A stretch of 64,000 bases of DNA from an uncultured Gammaproteobacteria bacterium (GCA_964522435.1 CAZFUL010000006.1:9573-73572); one strand, 5' to 3'; positions 2,679 through 35,907 are shown, numbered from the stretch's first letter. The notes: a model not told the origin generated them from the letters alone. Made by a program: numbers and translations.

Positions 2679-4118
2679 TTAATTATCTTTTTTTGTTACC
2701 ACTGCAAGCGCCACCCCAAGTGGGAGCCACATAACACTACTAAAATACGAGGTATTAAAGAGTTGAAACCCAATCGCCGCAACGGCCATTAAGAACATGG
2801 TTTGATATAACAGTCGTTGTTCGCCATGCTCTGCTGCCCGATATTTTTTATACAAAAATACCAAAATATATCCTAAACAGGCAGTAAACAATACCAAGCC
2901 CAACACGCCATATTCCAACAACACTTTTTGGATATAGCCATGGGCATCAAGCGGATCACCAAAATCCATGGTAAAGGCACGGGTTTGTTCTAACACAGGA
3001 ATATACATACCTGGTCCGTAGCCAATAAACGGAGAACGCGTTACCATATAGCTCACAATGTCTGTGGTAAGTAAGCGTGATGCGGTAGAACTTTGTGCGG
3101 TATGTGATACCAAAAAAAATCCCATATAGCCCACTAACAAAAGCGCGATACTCACCAATATTGGTTTGTAGGCTTGCCAGTATGCGCTGGTTTTTTTTCT
3201 ATACTCGGGCGAGTGATACAGCACAAAGCCAGCCAAGGTAGCAACAACAATCCATGCTGCCCGAGATAAGGTAAGTAAACTCGCAATAAAAATAATCCCT
3301 GTCCCCCATTGATATAGGCGTTGTTTCCAGGCTGCCTCATGGAGCTGTTTTTGCAATACTACATATAACGAAATAGGCAGCACGGTTACCAGCACTTCTG
3401 CCAACACATTATGGTTAAATCCAAAGGGAGTAATGCCCCAAAAGGTATAGGGTTGCACGCGAAACACATCACCACTTTGTGCAACCACTAATGATGATAG
3501 TCCAAACAAGGCAGCAAAGAGGCCAACCCAAAACCAAATACGAAAGAGTTGTTGCATGGCCTCTTCTTTTCGTAAGACAACTAAAGGCAACAACACATAC
3601 GCAGCAAACACAAAGGCGGGTTTGCGGATAAGGGCATACAGACTTTCAAATACACGATAATCAAAGGCATGGACACTCGCTACAACACCTACCAGCAAAA
3701 ATGCGCCATACAACAAACAAAGATGAAGCACGAGTTTTTTTCGTTGCGCGGGTATGCTCGTTATGTGGGTCATAAGGGCACAGAGCGTTGTCACTACTAA
3801 AAATGCCGCAATAAAATCCACCACCGGGGCATCAACCGCATTGAGATACGGAATACGCCGCGACCATTCATATTGAGAAAAATAAATCCCAATAGTAGAA
3901 AAAAAAGAACATGCCGCCAAAAGAAGTATCCCCCCTTGGGCATAAACCAACGCGGCGATAAAGGCAACAAGCGCAAATAAGAACGCAGCAAATAAAGAAA
4001 AGTTCCCTAACAGAATCGTAATAACCGATACCCCGAAAAACAGGATCAACCAAAATATACGCCTTGCGGGTGTTGGTTCTTTCATGCCATGGAGTAAATT
4101 GGTTCTTGGGTCGGCCAT
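2679..4118 (-). CDS. O-antigen ligase / polysaccharide polymerase-like polytopic membrane protein
   Basis: 479 aa with >10 predicted TM helices and a central loop (LSRAAWIVVATLAGFVLY...) resembling the Wzy_C/O-antigen ligase domain. Adjacent to a GT4 gene. Confidence 0.5.
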   Translation of the reverse strand: MADPRTNLLHGMKEPTPARRIFWLILFFGVSVITILLGNFSLFAAFLFALVAFIAALVYAQGGILLLAACSFFSTIGIYFSQYEWSRRIPYLNAVDAPVVDFIAAFLVVTTLCALMTHITSIPAQRKKLVLHLCLLYGAFLLVGVVASVHAFDYRVFESLYALIRKPAFVFAAYVLLPLVVLRKEEAMQQLFRIWFWVGLFAALFGLSSLVVAQSGDVFRVQPYTFWGITPFGFNHNVLAEVLVTVLPISLYVVLQKQLHEAAWKQRLYQWGTGIIFIASLLTLSRAAWIVVATLAGFVLYHSPEYRKKTSAYWQAYKPILVSIALLLVGYMGFFLVSHTAQSSTASRLLTTDIVSYMVTRSPFIGYGPGMYIPVLEQTRAFTMDFGDPLDAHGYIQKVLLEYGVLGLVLFTACLGYILVFLYKKYRAAEHGEQRLLYQTMFLMAVAAIGFQLFNTSYFSSVMWLPLGVALAVVTKKDN

Positions 4119-4223
4119 GTGAGGGAAATAAAGCAGATTAAGTATAACAGACCCTCCTCTACTCTGACAATAAAAGAAGCGCAGTGACCACCGTGAGTTA
4201 CCTGTTTGTTATTCTAAATTCAG

Positions 4224-4284
4224 AAAAAGATTTTTGGCCGTGGTTTATAAGCCCCAAATTGGCGGAATGTCTTTTTTTATTTTT
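4224..4284 (+). repeat. Structured ~55-nt repeat element, copy 1 (A-run, stems, internal hairpin GTGG-tttataa-GCCCC, T-run)
   Basis: aaaaagatttttggccgtggtttataagccccaaattggcggaatgtcttttttt. Paralogous to copies at 4336 and 4861, with compensatory base changes. Confidence 0.5.
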
Positions 4285-4335
4285 CCACAACCATATACCT
4301 TGACATTGAATGTGCTGTCTGATACTCTAAAAATA

Positions 4336-4393
4336 GAAAAGGCTTTCGGCCGGGGTTTATAAGCCCCAAATTGGCGGAATGCCCTTTTTTGTT
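4336..4393 (+). repeat. Structured ~55-nt repeat element, copy 2
   Basis: gaaaaggctttcggccggggtttataagccccaaattggcggaatgccctttttt. A promoter-like TTGACA(4300-4305)-17 bp-TACTCT lies between copies 1 and 2. Confidence 0.5.
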
Positions 4394-4840
4394 TTATGTC
4401 TCAATCGGAAATATAGACACTAACCATTTTTCCCCTGATCTTTTTTCTTCCTTAAGTTGAACAAAAAACAGTTGTCCATCCTTTGTTTTTCCAGCAAATC
4501 GATGAAGAATTTCAGATGTTCTATCTACGTTATCCTTAGATTCCGGGTCAACGGTGCTATTTTCAATTAACTCAATAGCACAAGGGAAATACTTTACTCG
4601 TCTTATTTTGTCTCGAAAGTTACATTTTTCATGTAAATGATTCCAAAATAGTGGCAGAAAGATTTTTTCCTTATTAAAATATGCCGATCGGACATACGAT
4701 CTTCTTTTTGACTTCTTTCGTATAGTATCGTAAAGGCTATATGCCTTTTTGTATACTTCCTTATATTGCGTTCCTGCTAACGGCAGTGCCTTTGTTTGAT
4801 ATATATTCTTCATATTGCATCTATTGATATCCGGATACAT
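4394..4840 (-). CDS. Hypothetical basic protein (148 aa), flanked by the structured repeats
   Basis: ORF only. No recognisable family. Lys/Arg-rich. Confidence 0.35.
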   Translation of the reverse strand: MYPDINRCNMKNIYQTKALPLAGTQYKEVYKKAYSLYDTIRKKSKRRSYVRSAYFNKEKIFLPLFWNHLHEKCNFRDKIRRVKYFPCAIELIENSTVDPESKDNVDRTSEILHRFAGKTKDGQLFFVQLKEEKRSGEKWLVSIFPIET

Positions 4841-4860
4841 TCATGTTACGTTATTTATAT

Positions 4861-4916
4861 AAAAAGACTTCCGGCCGTGGTTATTGCCACAAATTGGTCG
4901 AAAGCTCTTTTTTATT
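4861..4916 (+). repeat. Structured ~55-nt repeat element, copy 3 (internal hairpin GTGG-ttattg-CCAC)
   Basis: aaaaagacttccggccgtggttattgccacaaattggtcgaaagctctttttt. Covariation relative to copies 1 and 2 keeps the pairing. Confidence 0.5.
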
Positions 4917-4993
4917 TTAATCATAAGGAATGTTTGACTATAGTATCATTGCACGGCATAGCATAACAGGAAAAAACTAAAAAAATACGAAAA

Positions 4994-5026
4994 CAAAAAA
5001 CCCACCGTTCTGGTGAGTTTTTTATT
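4994..5026. terminator. Weak bidirectional intrinsic terminator-like hairpin (CACC-gttct-GGTG flanked by A-run and T-run)
   Basis: aaaaaacccaccgttctggtgagtttttt. Confidence 0.3.
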
Positions 5027-5254
5027 TTCATCTGTTTTCCTTTCTGTTGAAAGAAACACACATGGAATTGGCCCGGGGTGTATGCGTAAAGCAACCCCGG
5101 GGATCTTTTACTTCCCCAGCTCAGTTGGCTAGCGAGCGCAGGTTGTGCGCAGGTCAGGCTCTATGAGCTGGAGAACTGTTAGGTGGGAAAGAGCAAAGGT
5201 AGGTGCCCAGACAGAGTGCCGGGGCAGAGTTGGTGGGGGTCCCTGGTCAGCGGG

Positions 5255-7738
5255 TTAGCGCTGCCAGGGGCCGCAGCCGAGGGCGGCGCGAGGAACAAAG
5301 ATGTTCCCCGGCGCCGCACCGCCGCACGCGTGCTGGTGCTGCACGTACTGGCGCGGAATCCGCGCCCACGCCGCCCCGTTGATGCTGGTCTCGACGACCA
5401 GCGTCTCCAGGGAGGGCGCGCCTGCATCGCAGGAGTAGTACGGCATGGCCGCGTTGAGGTTCCGGGCCACGCGGGCCCAGATCTCGAGGCCGCTGGCGCG
5501 GGTGCACGCCTCAACCCCGTTCATCTCGACGATGAACTCACTCGAGTTGGCCTCGGGGCCAATCTCGATGATGTCATCGCCGTCGGCGGTCGTGAGACCG
5601 CCGTGGATGAGGTGGGGCTGGCAATCAGCACCGCAGGTCATGCGGACGCGGATGGCGGCCGGAGGAGGCGGGGGCGGGGCGGCGACACAGATGCCGCCCA
5701 CGCAGTTCTGGCCCGCGGCGCAGGCGAAGTCCGCGGGGCAGAGGGCCACGCGGCAGTCGCCGTCGTCACAGACCTCGCCCACGCCGCAGTCGGCGTTCTC
5801 GGCGCACTCGGCGGGCGGGGGCGGGGGGGGCTGGACGCACCGGTTGTTGGTGCAGCTCCAGCCCTGGGGGCAGTCCACGACCAGCCGGCAGAAGCCGGGG
5901 ATGGGGTCGCAGGTCCCGTTGTTGCACTCTTCGCCGACATCACAGTCGGCATCCTCCTCGCACTCGAGGGGCAGGGTGCAACGACCGAGCTGGCAGACCT
6001 GGCCACGGGGGCACAGGTTGTTGCCTTCGTCGACATTGCCGTCGCCGTTGTCGTCGCGGGCGTTGCAGAGCTCCGCGGGGGGCTCGCTGCAGTCGAGATC
6101 ATCATCGTCGGTGAGGGTGTCACCGTCGCTGTCGAACCCGTCCGCGCAGAACCACTCCGCGGGGTTGCACTGCCCGTCGCCATCGCGATCCAGGCAGGTC
6201 GTGCAGACCCGGTCATCGCCGGGTGCCTCGCTGCCCGGTACCTGGCACACATGGATGTGGCTGGCCGGGAGGCGGGGGGAAACACAGGCGGAGTAGTTGT
6301 GGGCGGGGAGCCCATCCGCCTGCTGCCGGAAGTCACGGCAGACCCAGTTGGGGTTGAGGCAGGTGCGGTCGGCCAGGCAGGGTGCCCGGCAGGCCGCGTC
6401 GTTCTCGTCCTCGTTGGCGCTTTCGCCGCAGAGAACGTTGTCATCGATGGAGCCGTTGCAGTCGTTGTCGATGCCGTCGAAGGCCTCGGTCACCGGGTTG
6501 CCCGGCTGGCCGCTGCACTCGACAGCGCCCTGGTTGTTGCAGACGAAAGCTCCGGGGCGCTGACAAGCGCCCACGCCGACGGTGCAGGCACCGCCGACGT
6601 TGAAACCTTCGTCCGTGCGGCCATCGCAGTCGTTGTCGTCCCCGTCACACCGCTCGTTCTGCGGCGCGATGGGGTCGTCGTTGGGAATGCACAACGCGTT
6701 CATCCCCCCGTTGGGGGGACAGACCACGATGCCGGGCTGGGCGCATTCGCCCTGCCCGAAGGTGCAGTCTTCCCCGACATTGAAGTCTTCGTCGCTCTGA
6801 CCATCACAGTCGTCGTCGATGTTGTTGCAGGTCTCCTCGCCAGGGGCGAGGGGCTGGCCCACACAAAGGGCCGCGCCGGAGAGGTTGGCGGGGTTGCACA
6901 CCCGCTCACCCTGAACCATGCAGGCACCGAGACCCACGTCGCAGGCCTCATCGAGGTTGAAGTCTTCGTCGCTCTGGCCATCACAGTCGTCGTCGATGCC
7001 GTTGCAGAGTTCGTTGGCCACAGGCTGGCCCGCCACGGCGTCGCAGACGACGCCGTTGAGCTGCGCATTGCAGACCAGTTCACCCGCCGTGAGGCAGGCG
7101 CCCTGGCCGGCGTTGCAGGCCTCCCCAAGGGTGGGGAAGGTCTCGTCGGTCTGGCCATCGCAGTCGTTGTCGCGCCCGTCGCAGAGCTCCGCCTGGGGAG
7201 GCGGGCCCGCGGGGGCGTTGCAGACAACGGCGCCCTGGGCGTTACACGCCCGGACGCCCTGCGCGGCGCAGTCACCGTCGCCGAGGTTGCAAACGCCCCC
7301 GATGGTGTTGTTACCTTCGGGGCCGAAGTCCTCGTCGACGGTGCCGTCGCAGTCGTTGTCGACGCTGTCACAGGTCTCGGCCACAGGCGCTCCGGGCTGG
7401 AGCGGCAGGCCATCCGCACCCTCGCACTCGAGGGCGAGGAGGTCGGCCGTGGGGCCCATCACGCCCATCCGGTGACAGGCGCCGACGCCCGTCTCACAGG
7501 GCTGGCCGGCGTTCTCGAAACCCTCATCAACACGACCGTCACAGTCGTTGTCGCGGCCGTCCCGGAGCTCGGGGAGCCCCAGGCCGGAGTTGTTGTCTCC
7601 GTCGTTGCAGTCGATGCGGGCGGGGTCGGAGCTCTCGCCGAGCTCCTTCTTCCGCCCGAGGTTGAAGTCATCACCGCAGCCCGTGAGGGCCGCGAGAGGA
7701 AGGCTCACAAAGAGCCAGAACAGGATGCGCACGTTCAT
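5255..7738 (-). CDS. Secreted lipoprotein with 7 MopE-like putative metal-binding repeats (C-x-DG-x-DNDCDG-x-DE) plus C-terminal Cys-rich/poly-Pro modules
   Basis: 827 aa. Lipoprotein signal MNVRILFWLFVSLPLAALTGC. Repeats include GRDNDCDGRVDEGF, DSVDNDCDGTVDEDF, GRDNDCDGQTDETF, IDDDCDGQSDEDF (x2), DDNDCDGRTDEGF and IDNDCNGSIDDN. PPPPPP linkers. Confidence 0.7.
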   Translation of the reverse strand: MNVRILFWLFVSLPLAALTGCGDDFNLGRKKELGESSDPARIDCNDGDNNSGLGLPELRDGRDNDCDGRVDEGFENAGQPCETGVGACHRMGVMGPTADLLALECEGADGLPLQPGAPVAETCDSVDNDCDGTVDEDFGPEGNNTIGGVCNLGDGDCAAQGVRACNAQGAVVCNAPAGPPPQAELCDGRDNDCDGQTDETFPTLGEACNAGQGACLTAGELVCNAQLNGVVCDAVAGQPVANELCNGIDDDCDGQSDEDFNLDEACDVGLGACMVQGERVCNPANLSGAALCVGQPLAPGEETCNNIDDDCDGQSDEDFNVGEDCTFGQGECAQPGIVVCPPNGGMNALCIPNDDPIAPQNERCDGDDNDCDGRTDEGFNVGGACTVGVGACQRPGAFVCNNQGAVECSGQPGNPVTEAFDGIDNDCNGSIDDNVLCGESANEDENDAACRAPCLADRTCLNPNWVCRDFRQQADGLPAHNYSACVSPRLPASHIHVCQVPGSEAPGDDRVCTTCLDRDGDGQCNPAEWFCADGFDSDGDTLTDDDDLDCSEPPAELCNARDDNGDGNVDEGNNLCPRGQVCQLGRCTLPLECEEDADCDVGEECNNGTCDPIPGFCRLVVDCPQGWSCTNNRCVQPPPPPPAECAENADCGVGEVCDDGDCRVALCPADFACAAGQNCVGGICVAAPPPPPPAAIRVRMTCGADCQPHLIHGGLTTADGDDIIEIGPEANSSEFIVEMNGVEACTRASGLEIWARVARNLNAAMPYYSCDAGAPSLETLVVETSINGAAWARIPRQYVQHQHACGGAAPGNIFVPRAALGCGPWQR

Positions 7739-8320
7739 GGTGCGATCTCCTTATAGTCAGCAGTGGGTGCTCTCGCCTTCCCCACTCACATCAAACGATG
7801 ATCACCATCTAGGTCACGCCGATATGCTTATGCCTCATTGGTATTGAGGTAAGCAATCATTGTTTCCCCGAGCAACTTTACCGTTACCCGCGCGTTCTCC
7901 TCCCCTAACGATGGGGCAAAGAACTGATGGCATTCACAATCTTTCAGTAAGTAGAGTTGGTTCAAGCGGTTGTACGCACAGATGCCCGAGCTGGGCAAAC
8001 CATACCCGAGCACCGTGCCGGGTTACTGTACGCAGGAAAGTGCTCTTTGTTTTTGTAGAGCAGCTTCATGCGTACAGCAACGCCGGAGGCGTATCTATAT
8101 TATTACTTTTATTCCTCAATTGTAAGGATCAAATTGCTAAACAGTCAGCGCATCATTAAACACTATGTTTGATCATTTGTCAATGGTACGCAGTTCTGTT
8201 CCCCACTGGCGCGAGGTACAGAGTCGATTTGATTCGGCCTCGGTATACGAGGCACCAGTGGGAGGGGGGTTCGGGGATTTGCTTGAGGGGAGAGGCGGGT
8301 GGGGCACCCGGGACAGCCGA

Positions 8321-9226
8321 TCAATCGGCGAGTTCCCAGATGCCCGAGATGAGGGCGCCGCCAACAAGGCCGATAAGCGCAGAAGGAGCGCAGTCGTAGA
8401 GGTCGCTGGGACCTTCATCTTGCTCTCCGCACAAAGCGGCCATTCCGACAGCACCAGCTGCCATCGGCACCGCCCATTTGACGGCGGTGTAGGCATTGGA
8501 GTGGCTGCCGGCGGGCGGCGGGTCGATGAAGAGCATCCGTCCCCCGTCGAGGGGGATGGAGCACTCCCGCCCCTCTTCCACGCAGAGCGTGGCGAGGGCG
8601 TTGGGCTCCAACACTGCCTTCATGCAGGTCTCCAGGGACTTGGCCAAGATGGAGAGCGTATCTGCTCCCACCCCGGCCGAGTGGGCCACGGTGATCGCAC
8701 GGGCTTTGGCCTCGCACGCGGAGGTGACCAGACCTTGCTGGATCAGCCGGTCCAACTTGGCGTTGGCGGCGTCCAGCTTGGCTTGGGTTTCTTCGTCGTG
8801 CAGGGTCAGGGCGTCGGAAACGCCCTCGATGGCGCCCATGAGCTCCGTGTGCCGATCCTCTGCCTGCTTGCTGAGCAAGTCGAGCCGGTCGAGGACCGGA
8901 CGGAGGTTGACGCCACGTTCGCGAGAGGCGATGCGCTTCGCAGCGCGCTCGCAGGCCGCGACGAAACCGCGGGGGTCACAGCGCTCTTCGAAACAGCGCG
9001 CTGCTTCCTCCAGCTTCTCCTCACAGGTGCTCGCGTCGGCGCGGGAGGCGCCGTTCTTGAACTCCTTCGAAGCCGCCAGCATGTCGGCGGCAACGAGACG
9101 AGCGGTGGCCAGCGCACTGGCGGCCGCGTATCGGGGGTTGTTGGTCGCATCCCCGGTCGCCGAAGCGCCCGAGGGGAGAAACCCTGCCAGGAAGGCGAGG
9201 GCAAAAAAGAAACTGGAAAACTTCAT
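8321..9226 (-). CDS. Hypothetical secreted protein (signal peptide MKFSSFFFALAFLAGFLPSGASA), Ala-rich helical
   Basis: 301 aa. Good RBS (GGAGGAGAAAAAATC-ATG). A hairpin CCCCTGC-ctcttca-GCAGGGG lies between this and the upstream gene. Confidence 0.45.
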   Translation of the reverse strand: MKFSSFFFALAFLAGFLPSGASATGDATNNPRYAAASALATARLVAADMLAASKEFKNGASRADASTCEEKLEEAARCFEERCDPRGFVAACERAAKRIASRERGVNLRPVLDRLDLLSKQAEDRHTELMGAIEGVSDALTLHDEETQAKLDAANAKLDRLIQQGLVTSACEAKARAITVAHSAGVGADTLSILAKSLETCMKAVLEPNALATLCVEEGRECSIPLDGGRMLFIDPPPAGSHSNAYTAVKWAVPMAAGAVGMAALCGEQDEGPSDLYDCAPSALIGLVGGALISGIWELAD

Positions 9227-9272
9227 GATTTTTTCTCCTCCCCTGCCTCTTCAGCAGGGGGGCTCCATTGTT

Positions 9273-9875
9273 TCAGTTGTTGACCATGAGCCCGCAGCTT
9301 TCGCTGCAGATGGGTTCGGCCTTGGCGCGGTCGAAGCCGAGCTTGACCTGGTCGCTGACGCATTCTTTGATGCAGTCCGCGACCTCATCGCTGCCGGCCT
9401 TCGCCGGGGCGGCGGGCGCCGCGGGGGCGGGGGGGCTGCTGTCACGGCCGAAGCCGAGCAGCAGCGCCACCAAGAGCAAGCAGAGGACGATGGCGGCGAC
9501 GAGCGCCACCATCATTCCCTTGCCGTTGTTGCGGTTCTGCTGCCCGCGGATGAGGCCGGACAGATCCGTCGTTGCATCTTCCACGTGGCTCCGCACCGCG
9601 GAGGCCACGCGGCTCACAGCGCCGGGGGTCAGATCGACCTGCACCGGCGCCGCCACGGGCGCGGGGATGACCGCGGCCGCGGGAGTGGGGCTGGGCTTCG
9701 CCGGGGGCAGGGGCGGGAGCACCTTGGGAGGCGCGGCCGGCGTGGGAGCCGGCTTCACAGGCGCATGAGGGTTGTTGGGAGCGACCCCACCCGGAGGGGC
9801 GGGGGGCGGATTCGTGGTTCCTCCGGGAGGAGGAACCTGGTTGGGAGGCAGACTCCCAGTTCCGGTAACAGACAT
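9273..9875 (-). CDS. Pro-rich single-pass membrane protein with C-terminal Cys-containing ectodomain
   Basis: 200 aa. RBS AGGAGG 7 nt upstream of ATG. N-terminal PPxxP-rich low complexity, TM helix MMVALVAAIVLCLLLVALLLGF, C-terminus with 4 Cys. Confidence 0.45.
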   Translation of the reverse strand: MSVTGTGSLPPNQVPPPGGTTNPPPAPPGGVAPNNPHAPVKPAPTPAAPPKVLPPLPPAKPSPTPAAAVIPAPVAAPVQVDLTPGAVSRVASAVRSHVEDATTDLSGLIRGQQNRNNGKGMMVALVAAIVLCLLLVALLLGFGRDSSPPAPAAPAAPAKAGSDEVADCIKECVSDQVKLGFDRAKAEPICSESCGLMVNN

Positions 9876-10109
9876 TTTGACCTCCTAGGTCATGCGCCCG
9901 GGACACGGACGCGGTGTGAATGCGCTGTGCCCCGGGCCATGGGGTTGCGCGGTTGTGCTCTCTAGAAATGAAATTGGCCAAGCTAAGGGCAACACTACCC
10001 TTATGTTAGCCAATTCCATTCCATATATATATTCTCAAGCAAATTGTAATGAACCGTTTGTTCGCCATAGCCTTTATAGGGCAGTGGCGGTAGCAAGGCT
10101 ATTACCTTA

Positions 10110-21045: not shown

Positions 21046-21457
21046 GGGGATGACAGGGATCGATAGACGGATCCGCTGATATTTATGTGCATACCGAGGT
21101 CGCCTGTCCTCGTTAAAAGGCAAGGCAACACACAAGTGCAAACCTTGTAAACCGAGTTAGCAACGTATTTGCCCGTGTTTCACGCGCATTTACTCCAGCG
21201 CTCGCAACCGCTGTCGCGTAATAGCTTGATAGCCATCGCGCCCACGATACTCAATAGTGGAACCGTGGTGTCAACCCAATTGAGTGTAGATAGCGGATAT
21301 CTTGCATGGGTATCCCCCATCGAAATAAACCCCATGCAGGCTCTTGTGGATGTTGCTGGTTATATACCAACAATGAGCCTCAAAAAAAATCAGCTATGTA
21401 TGTAGGACATGATATAAGCCCGGACTAGACCCGAGTTCAATTCTCGGCATCTCCACA
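21046..21457 (+). ncRNA. ssrA: tmRNA (ssrA)
   Basis: 5' end GGGGATGACAGGGATCGATAGACGG matches the tmRNA acceptor/D-region consensus. 3' end has a T-arm CGAGTTCAATTCTCG and acceptor CATCTCC pairing with GGGGATG. Internal tag reading frame ends ...ALATAVA followed by tandem stops TAA-TAG (21219-21224). Sits directly after smpB. Confidence 0.85.
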
Positions 21458-21565
21458 AAAACAATGAGCAATGAACAATAAACAATGAACAAAACTTTCC
21501 CGTTCTGCAGTTTATTGAAGATAGCAAAATTGTTAATTGTTTATTGCTAATTGTTAATTGTTACT

Positions 21566-23454: not shown

Positions 23455-23530
23455 GGACCGGTAGTTCAATGGTTAGAGCACCGCCCTGTCACGGCGGAAG
23501 TTGCGGGTTCGAGCCCCGTCCGGTCCGCCA
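23455..23530 (+). tRNA. tRNA-Asp (anticodon GTC), CCA encoded
   Basis: Acceptor GGACCGG/CCGGTCC. D-arm GTTC-AATGGTTA-GAGC. Anticodon stem-loop CCGCC-CTGTCAC-GGCGG. T-arm GCGGG-TTCGAGC-CCCGT. Discriminator G plus CCA. Confidence 0.9.
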
Positions 23531-31697: not shown

Positions 31698-31817
31698 AAC
31701 AAAAACTATATCTATAAAAAAAGAGCCCTAAACTATATTAAGTTTAGGGCTCTTTTGAGTCCCCGATCTTGTGTGCCCGTTCACAAGATCAGGGAAAAAT
31801 GCACAGTGATGTAGTAT

Positions 31818-35809: not shown

Positions 35810-35907
35810 ACTCACCTAAACAAAAAACAGCCTTACTCAAAAGCTGTTTTTTTTCTTCCCCGAAGCATACTATTGCATCAGGGATCACCTCCTTCTTGGA
35901 AAAGATG

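Follow-up and report, generated by a model that had tools for sequence, protein, structure and literature searches.

A small-RNA gene family standing tail to tail with a RelE/BECR-like protein gene in Patescibacteria: a probable toxin-antitoxin-type module

Three related elements, all on the plus strand and all inside 700 bp of a 64,000-nt stretch of DNA from an uncultured Gammaproteobacteria bacterium (GCA_964522435.1 CAZFUL010000006.1:9573-73572; hereafter the window), are predicted genes for a small RNA of ~55-60 nt, which would be transcribed from its own sigma-70 promoter and consists of one long bulged hairpin followed by a U-tail. Judged by sequence, they belong to an undescribed small-RNA gene family that stands tail to tail with a protein gene in hundreds of bacteria of the Patescibacteria, or candidate phyla radiation (CPR). 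According to its structure model, the protein probably adopts a RelE/BECR fold and would be RNA-cleaving and toxin-like, and together with the RNA it most likely forms a module of toxin-antitoxin type in which the antidote is an RNA. The features of the module in the window are the following.

4220-4284, plus strand: small-RNA gene, copy 1 (w1); covariance model R1 75.6 bits, E 3e-15; minimum free energy (MFE) -17.5 kcal/mol, z -2.4
4332-4396, plus strand: small-RNA gene, copy 2 (w2); covariance model 80.9 bits, E 1.4e-16; MFE -26.7 kcal/mol, z -3.2
4857-4919, plus strand: small-RNA gene, copy 3 (w3); covariance model 66.6 bits, E 4.7e-13; MFE -19.4 kcal/mol, z -4.4
4394-4813, minus strand: protein gene; the 139-aa product is basic, is predicted to have a RelE/BECR-like fold and belongs to an uncharacterised protein family of Patescibacteria; the mechanical open reading frame (ORF) runs on to 4840, and members of the family align from the Met at 4813
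4207-4215, plus strand: putative extended -10 box of copy 1 (TGTTATTCT), with no recognisable -35; read off the sequence, at the -10 position of the family
4300-4328, plus strand: putative promoter of copy 2, TTGACA (4300-4305), 17-nt spacer, TG (4320-4321), TACTCT (4323-4328); read off the sequence, at the promoter position of the family
4824-4852, plus strand: putative promoter of copy 3, TTGATA (4824-4829), 17-nt spacer ending in TGT, TACGTT (4847-4852); read off the sequence, at the promoter position of the family

Three copies around one protein gene

The copies, each of ~65 nt, lie between a gene for a 479-aa membrane protein (2679-4118, minus strand) and a block of 67% G+C. In a repeat search, copies 1 and 2, which are 112 nt apart, share 88% identity over 59 nt (4225-4283 versus 4337-4395), and copy 3 is 82% identical over its 3′ half; the 3′ halves of all three are 82-88% identical, and the mean column identity of the three copies in a MAFFT alignment is 83%. 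The likeness runs ~20 nt upstream of each hairpin and takes in the extended -10 box. A preliminary description of this DNA had reported three structured repeats, and these searches recover them at the same places, the matches to an nhmmer profile built from the three copies having E values of 1.5e-25, 5.9e-24 and 2e-22 in the 64-kb window. A degenerate core pattern gives two matches in the window, against 0.00 expected. No fourth copy was found in the window: the next nhmmer matches, the reverse strands of the copies themselves aside, have E > 1, and the covariance model concurs. Weak matches of that model at 31711-31760 (minus strand, 27.9 bits) and 35816-35854 (minus strand, 25.1 bits) resemble ordinary A-run/hairpin/U-run terminators rather than members of the family.

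Copy 2 has the best promoter and the best model score of the three, and its U-tail overlaps the stop codon (4394-4396) of the ORF on the opposite strand; it is the cognate, convergent partner of that ORF. Copy 1 shares the subtype of copy 2, with the loop UUUAUAAG and the 3′ strand GGCGGAA that are also seen at L014, L027 and L035 (L numbers denote loci of the surveys described below). It is the least stable copy and the one without a -35, and it is a tandem duplicate of copy 2 and the weakest of the three. Copy 3 is of a different subtype (loop UUAUUG, 3′ strand GGUCGAAAG), has a core nearly identical to those of L022 and L033, and points away from the start of the ORF. The idea that a second toxin gene had been deleted to the right of copy 3 was ruled out by a six-frame hmmsearch, which saw no remnant of the protein gene.

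Fold, strand and covariation of the RNA

The RNA is predicted to fold into an outer stem formed by an A-run and a U-run, a middle stem (TTCGGCC/GGCGGAA), a 3′-side bulge of 5 nt (AAAUU) and a hairpin of 4-6 bp at the apex; the two stems and the apical hairpin had been recognised in the preliminary description, and that layout is borne out. The compensatory changes that had been claimed for the apical hairpin are genuine between copy 2 (GGGG/CCCC) and copy 3 (GTGG/CCAC), but not in copy 1, whose GTGG/CCCC helix contains a U·C mismatch. The z scores given above for the plus strand are relative to dinucleotide shuffles, a check that had been suggested for the fold and that all three copies pass. 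The minus strand folds worse, at -10.2 kcal/mol (z -0.06), -21.2 kcal/mol and -17.3 kcal/mol for copies 1, 2 and 3, respectively.

Stronger evidence for a conserved structure comes from homologues. In a MAFFT alignment of 20 sequences (A2), the structure is 91.8% paired and 8 pairs are changed on both sides, values that none of 500 shuffles reaches; slid controls are 44-64% paired. A model-fitted alignment of 69 sequences (A5) is 89.2% paired, with 14 pairs and 85 cells changed on both sides; depending on the measure, 0-1 of 500 shuffles did as well, and slid controls were 47-66% paired. An alignment of 51 sequences that was anchored on the ORF stop rather than fitted to the model is 83% paired, and 15 pairs and 84 cells are changed on both sides (0/500 shuffles; slid controls, 40-65%). 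On the ORF-anchored MAFFT alignment, RNAalifold recovered the middle helix alone, because the variable apical hairpins are misaligned there; counting the named structure in the same alignment supports all helices. This strong covariation in 51-69 homologues upholds the earlier view that the fold is a conserved one and not due to chance.

The functional strand is the plus strand, since three measures all point there: the share of G-U among paired cells in the 69-sequence alignment (203/1525, 13%), the covariance-model scores (66-84 bits forward versus 18-30 in reverse) and the folding energies. The pairs flanking the bulge are near-invariant (C-G in 67/67 and G-C in 67/67), a G·G mismatch is kept in 53/67, and the bulge opens with a conserved CA(A). 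The apical part has a loop of variable length and carries large insertions in L103 and L090.

In the window, Rfam 15 reports tmRNA and tRNA alone at the gathering threshold, and at E ≤ 10 over 4150-5100 it returns noise below threshold over the copies (FasX, 15.7/100 bits; STnc320, 15.2/50; MIR2646, 17.3/245). Identities as a signal recognition particle RNA, a tRNA-like RNA or a K-turn were set aside, as the sequence lacks both a GNRA tetraloop and a symmetric-loop motif, its apical loop is variable, and the strand facing the bulge is continuously Watson-Crick paired.

Linkage of the RNA to a protein gene

A core-pattern scan of one genome per bacterial and archaeal species returned 35 loci, 17 of which, in 17 metagenome-assembled genomes (MAGs), carry the whole element with flanks, promoter and U-tail. 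Twelve of these 17 bear titles of the Patescibacteria group (Patescibacteria group, Magasanik-, Uhr-, Peregrini- and Peribacteria), and five bear generic or Gammaproteobacteria titles. The other 18 loci lie mostly in higher-GC genomes and have the core match alone, their count being close to the chance estimate for a pattern with 19 specified bases. At 13/17 genome loci, an opposite-strand ORF of ~137 aa ends 15-26 nt past the core match, which is to say at the U-tail of the RNA. The search for further copies that the preliminary description had called for thus finds none elsewhere in the window, yet finds the RNA in Patescibacteria genomes and metagenomes. Two loci, L014 and L018, are in MAGs labelled 'uncultured Gammaproteobacteria' (33-35% G+C) that have a Patescibacteria-type module and are possibly mis-binned or mislabelled.

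Linkage was also assessed without the RNA, on 69 metagenome loci gathered by peptide patterns of the protein alone. At 55 of these the covariance model places the RNA on the opposite strand beside the stop codon; of the 14 without a model match, 4 are truncated at a contig end (2 of these keep the 3′ part), and in the other 10 a diverged version of promoter, hairpin and U-tail occupies the corresponding position. The RNA is also present, with a score of 71 bits, at L036, a locus likewise reached through the protein. In all modules the convergent RNA gene lies downstream of the protein gene. In 49/61 modules the last 1-10 nt of the RNA (3 nt for the window's module) coincide with the end of the ORF; in the others the two ends are no more than 12 nt apart. 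Linkage is essentially complete, and the RNA is an obligate partner of the flanking protein gene. The 'small ORF' that had been noted amid the copies is therefore present, but it is a conserved 139-aa gene, and its partnership with the RNA, like the RelE/BECR-like character of its product, had been missed. Its real start is probably the Met at 4813, which would give the 139 aa and matches the public protein P0001.

Most other genomes have one RNA copy per locus, tied to one protein gene family. The sole other module surveyed with a second full RNA copy is L024, which comprises two complete modules. At L001, L022, L028 and L033, the RNA is an orphan, with no protein gene nearby, and at L082:3394-3530 and L028:4215-4330 (both minus strand) hairpin units stand in tandem behind a single promoter, with a U-tail after the second alone; these tandem units would be a dimeric form of the RNA. 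The neighbourhood of the module varies by locus (RmuC, DUF1385/dUTPase, MetRS, HEPN, GNAT/EF-Ts), and in the window it is a glycosyltransferase/membrane-protein cluster. No gene for a partner protein is evident: in many loci, the window included, little space is left upstream of the protein gene and the gene that follows there is divergent, although the neighbours vary. Relatives of the module were absent from IMG/VR, INPHARED phages and PLSDB (2.9 million viral contigs, plasmids and phages), and a phage or plasmid origin was ruled out on that ground.

Predicted fold and relatives of the protein

The protein family has 350 detected members, the named ones being 'hypothetical protein' entries from Patescibacteria-group MAGs, and an exhaustive profile search of 1.84 billion representatives gives only 290 clusters at 50% identity. 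No match for the protein came from Pfam, NCBIfam, PADLOC or PHROGs, and the RelE, ParE and PBECR profiles of Pfam gave none even at E ≤ 10; a profile search against PDB sequences returned L23 alone (E 0.66).

An AlphaFold2 model made from a 40-sequence alignment (predicted local distance difference test score, pLDDT, 93.2; predicted TM-score, pTM, 0.86) comprises a helix, a beta-hairpin, three helices (54-62, 66-74 and 76-85) and a four-stranded sheet (strands 91-94, 101-109, 115-123 and 129-136). The model resembles RelE/BrnT/CdiA-CT toxins and phage polyvalent-protein domains. In a Foldseek search of viral models (BFVD), phage 'large polyvalent protein' entries come out on top and a MuF-C entry lower (E 1e-3, prob 1.0, query TM-score (TMq) 0.50-0.58, 139-160 columns). 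Foldseek against PDB gave nothing significant, and support for a BECR fold, the fold of RelE/ParE, colicin E5/D and PBECR proteins, is therefore moderate. By predicted secondary structure, helix 54-62 contains H59 (at least 90% conserved) and the last strand contains the invariant S133. The N-terminal half is very basic and aromatic (KTKRRPYVRSAYF) and includes the invariant residues R37, Y40, R42, Y45, K50 and W57.

The domain is also found as the C-terminal end of a few STAND/NACHT NTPases (P0161, 685 aa; P0193, 736 aa; P0206, 299 aa), one of them with an N-terminal HNH nuclease, and this C-terminal spot is the usual position of effector domains in conflict systems. In the three fusions a basic KTKRRP motif is replaced.

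Promoters of the two genes

Promoters of the small RNA occupy a homologous place across the family, with TTGAC in 63/76 copies and an extended -10 (TGnTAnnnT), starting 11-14 nt before the model start, in 46/77. The TTGACA-17-TACTCT site pointed out earlier between copies 1 and 2 is real: it is preceded by TG, coincides with the family-wide promoter position and would serve copy 2. With a near-consensus sigma-70 promoter and a U-tail at nearly every copy, the suggestion that the repeats could be a family of small RNAs is substantiated. The promoters and hairpins of the copies escaped a simple promoter/terminator scanner, as the stems contain a bulge and the -10 hexamers, taken without the TG extension, are weak.

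Promoters of the protein gene in the family (for example, at L062 and L077) consist of an extended -10 alone (TGnTAAAAT) that ends 9-10 nt before the ATG, a spacing that suggests an almost leaderless mRNA. A near-consensus promoter for the RNA, set against an extended -10 alone for the protein gene, fits an antidote made in excess. In the window, the -10 box of the protein gene is degraded (4814-4829, TATCAA/ATCAAT) and coincides with the -35 of copy 3, which is the reverse complement of TATCAA, the sole -10-like hexamer ahead of the ATG of the ORF; the promoters of copy 3 and of the ORF would thus overlap back to back.

Other sequence motifs accompany these promoters. TCCAC(A) occurs 12-16 nt upstream of the -35 in 15/63 small-RNA promoters (background 0.00085 per nt), in the window at 4281-4289 (TTTTCCACA); the site is often the full TTATCCACA, the DnaA-box consensus, and the same motif lies within the spacer of several promoters of the protein gene. 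In a subgroup of loci (L046, L049, L062, L067, L074 and L077; also L017, L018, L024 and L027), inverted copies of GCCGATATGCG...TTTTGGCCTTTTCTTTT(A)TCCACA precede both promoters and bracket the ~750-bp module, the copy on the protein-gene side having a terminator-like hairpin inserted. These bracketing repeats may be regulator sites, relics of small-RNA copies or element ends.

A possible mode of action and its alternatives

That the RNA controls a BECR-fold RNase toxin by antisense, in a type I-like manner, has in our estimate an even chance of being correct; transcription of the RNA, toxicity of the protein and the antisense mechanism are all predictions. In such a scheme, the RNA and protein genes would meet tail to tail and share one hairpin as the terminator of each, and this arrangement would make the hairpin a bidirectional terminator. 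Geometrically, this agrees with one of the roles first suggested for the repeats, as the hairpin abuts or overlaps the convergent stop codon and is flanked by A- and T-runs. The mRNA must read through the complement of the hairpin to reach the sole nearby terminator, and, given a shared bidirectional terminator, every toxin mRNA would end in the exact complement of the small RNA. The abundant antisense RNA could then pair with the 3′ end of the mRNA, possibly loop to loop at first, and the paired mRNA would be degraded or silenced, so that the toxin is kept off. Copy 3, with its promoter back to back with the promoter region of the toxin gene, would add to the dosage of the antidote and may compete with transcription of the toxin gene.

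Two hallmarks of type I systems are recognisable in the module: the RNA has, by its sequence, its own promoter, independent of the toxin mRNA, and it is antisense to the toxin gene, lying on the opposite strand and overlapping its 3′ end. The hydrophobic peptide of <60 aa that is typical of such systems, though not strictly required, is replaced here by a basic protein of 139 aa with a well-folded alpha/beta model. Signs of a conflict system are nonetheless several, namely the STAND/NACHT fusions, the changing neighbours, the duplication of the module (L024), the orphan RNAs and the lack of an evident partner protein gene.

Other observations weigh against type I-like antisense control. For a toxin of a toxin-antitoxin system the protein is unusually conserved (58-78% identity to the query among the best 120 of the 350 members). 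The near-invariance of primary sequence around the bulge is not required by pure antisense action and hints at recognition by a protein, and the tandem units (L082, L028) and orphan RNAs are without a target in cis. In addition, no extra complementarity of the small RNA to the translation-initiation region was found, the duplex energies of cognate pairs being no better than those of random regions of the same locus (mean z +0.8), a value by which a par-like second pairing site at that region of the toxin gene was ruled out.

Conceivably, then, the RNA, as a tiny and strongly expressed hairpin with an invariant bulge junction, might restrain the BECR-fold RNase by binding it directly, which would give a RelE-superfamily toxin an RNA antidote in place of a protein one and define a new class of Patescibacteria toxin-antitoxin or defence system that joins type I geometry to type III-like action; this is a tentative proposal, with a rather limited chance of being right. 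Were it true, the nuclease would be set free whenever the RNA is lost, as might happen when a phage shuts off transcription in its host. In the broader form of the idea, which we consider unlikely but worth serious attention, the RNA and the BECR-like protein form a type III-like pair or another ribonucleoprotein, the RNA neutralising or sequestering the protein or acting as its substrate or decoy, and the overlap of the genes just ensures co-inheritance. Binding would account for the near-invariant pairs flanking the bulge and for the G·G mismatch, both kept despite protein divergence to 45-60% identity, for the conserved CA(A) at the start of the bulge, and for the strongly basic and aromatic N-terminal half of the protein. 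The tandem hairpins behind one promoter in L082 and L028 recall the repeat arrays of type III antitoxins, and the orphan RNA genes and the extra copies in the window can work in trans only. Of two established properties of type III systems, however, namely an RNA upstream of the toxin on the same strand and its processing by a ToxN-type toxin, the first does not hold here and the predicted toxin fold is not ToxN-like; large insertions are tolerated in the apical part of the RNA (L103, L090), and the complementarity to the 3′ end of the mRNA is present regardless.

It is improbable that the pair is a non-toxic, lineage-specific one, be it a small ribonucleoprotein with a housekeeping role in Patescibacteria or a protein that processes or binds RNA and has its expression tuned by an antisense RNA in cis. 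The absence of the module from the viral, plasmid and phage collections, its chromosomal position amid housekeeping genes, the high conservation of the protein and the usually single copy per locus would all be expected of such a pair. A family of just 290 clusters in 1.84 billion representatives is far from universal, however, and its neighbourhoods vary, there are duplicated modules and orphan RNAs, STAND NTPases carry the domain as their C-terminal effector, and the best structural matches are toxins.

It is very unlikely that the elements are only strong bidirectional intrinsic terminators or insulators, copied around the ORF and devoid of RNA function. A hairpin between an A-run and a T-run does stand at the end of the ORF, and the covariance model weakly picks up generic terminators too (18-28 bits), but a near-consensus promoter is aimed into each hairpin and is conserved across the family, sequence and 3′ bulge are conserved far past the needs of termination, the G-U bias marks the strand opposite to the ORF, and copies 1 and 3 terminate no gene. 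It is scarcely credible that the elements are ends or relics of a mobile element, in the manner of IS200/IS605-like subterminal hairpins around a small transposase or of a miniature inverted-repeat transposable element (MITE): direct hairpin copies do flank the ORF of the window, the protein contains an H-L-H motif, a foreign-looking GC island adjoins and inverted repeats flank the whole module in one subgroup, yet there is no Y1_Tnp/HUH match, the fold is RelE-like with a four-stranded C-terminal sheet, most other modules have a hairpin on one side only (the second copy of L024 belonging to a second complete module), and the window has three copies in 64 kb, each with promoter and U-tail anatomy. 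On the profile, fold and one-sided-hairpin evidence, an IS200/IS605 element was ruled out; a MITE or a REP-type dispersed repeat was excluded by the copy number (3 in 64 kb, within 700 bp) and the tie to one gene family. The earlier proposal of a miniature repeat marking an insertion hot-spot falls for similar reasons, with no further copies in the window and, elsewhere, mostly one per locus beside the same kind of protein gene.

Surroundings of the module

The window has ~40% G+C apart from the 67% G+C block at ~5060-10020, so that the GC island described to the right of the copies does begin at ~5060. The 5-kb block (5062-10019) is bounded by a perfect 11-bp inverted repeat, ATGGAATTGGC (5062-5072) and GCCAATTCCAT (10009-10019), and carries an 827-aa ORF (5255-7738, minus strand) with five MopE-type Cu-binding repeats and internal repeats of ~180 bp. 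The block could be a foreign insertion or an assembly chimera. Just ahead of it stands one further feature.

4987-5031, strand not assigned: strong bidirectional intrinsic terminator, AAAAAACCCACC...GGTGAGTTTTTT, between copy 3 and the GC island; an ordinary terminator outside the RNA family (covariance model just 18.7 bits)

On the other side of the module, the 479-aa membrane-protein gene is preceded by a good promoter (4141-4170, minus strand; TTGTCA-18-TATACT with TG). A tmRNA gene (108.6 bits) and a tRNA-Asp(GTC) gene, at 21046-21458 and 23455-23530 of the window, are unrelated to the small-RNA module.

Comparison with known systems

The closest parallel in layout is par (Fst/RNA II) of Enterococcus faecalis plasmid pAD1, in which convergent promoters share a bidirectional, factor-independent terminator, the antitoxin RNA is very short, and the complementary loops of stem-loops in the two RNAs start their pairing (PMC7472228). 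The present module shares the convergent promoters, the very short RNA, the shared terminator and the complementary stem-loops, and has no sequence relationship with par. Unlike the toxin of par, a 33-aa membrane peptide, the protein here has 139 aa and is soluble, basic and RelE/BECR-like; the start codon in par is masked by direct repeats that its two RNAs also have in common, and a second site of this kind was not found in the present module.

In txpA/RatA, bsrG/SR4 and yonT/SR6 of Bacillus subtilis, as in the module described here, the toxin gene faces a convergent antitoxin RNA that runs into the 3′ end of that gene. The antitoxins of those systems are longer (100-220 nt), with longer overlaps, and their toxins are small hydrophobic peptides. 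SR6 is reported to promote the decay of its toxin transcript (PMC5848175). An antisense RNA that converges on a toxin gene and uses the same terminator is an arrangement of a kind already known. For a larger, soluble toxin there is a precedent in symE/SymR of E. coli, where an antisense RNA controls an RNA-targeting protein of ~110 aa; SymR differs in overlapping the 5′ end of symE, and the fold of SymE is AbrB-like.

Among BECR RNases (RelE/ParE and PBECR), the likeness lies in the predicted helices followed by a four-stranded antiparallel sheet, in the best viral matches, which are polyvalent proteins and a MuF-C protein, and possibly in the placement of a conserved His within a helix and of a conserved Ser within the final strand (PMC5512222). 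The present protein departs from these families in matching no Pfam RelE, ParE or PBECR profile, in an extra basic N-terminal part of ~50 residues and in its partner, which is an RNA, with no gene for a protein antitoxin. In a survey of RelE/ParE systems, the toxins are described as usually paired with a protein antitoxin, and no mention is made of RNA partners for this superfamily (PMC11980606).

With ToxIN and its relatives, the module has in common a small structured RNA, an endoribonuclease-like protein and, at some loci, tandem RNA units. In type III systems, RNA repeats lie upstream of the toxin gene on the same strand, with a terminator in between, and the RNA binds and inhibits the ToxN-type toxin and is processed by it. 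Here, the RNA gene is instead convergent, tandem units occur in L082 and L028 only rather than as a same-strand upstream repeat array, and the predicted toxin fold is not ToxN-like.

In the literature searched, the coverage of which is incomplete, we came across neither an account of this RNA nor one of an RNA antitoxin paired with a RelE-type toxin. What is new relative to the libraries and literature searched is the RNA family, the protein family and the association of a RelE/BECR-like protein with an RNA partner: a structured RNA family well supported by promoter, terminator and covariation is linked to an unannotated protein family, and neither is in the libraries. Patescibacteria/CPR make up a large share of bacterial diversity, and their small RNAs and conflict systems are almost uncharted. 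If the module is a toxin-antitoxin system, it would join a RelE/BECR-type nuclease to an RNA antidote, a combination for which the same literature gave no precedent, and would provide a small module, ~700 bp long, in which RNA-based control could be tested for organisms that resist cultivation. Hundreds of metagenomic loci could, in addition, be annotated with the RNA model.

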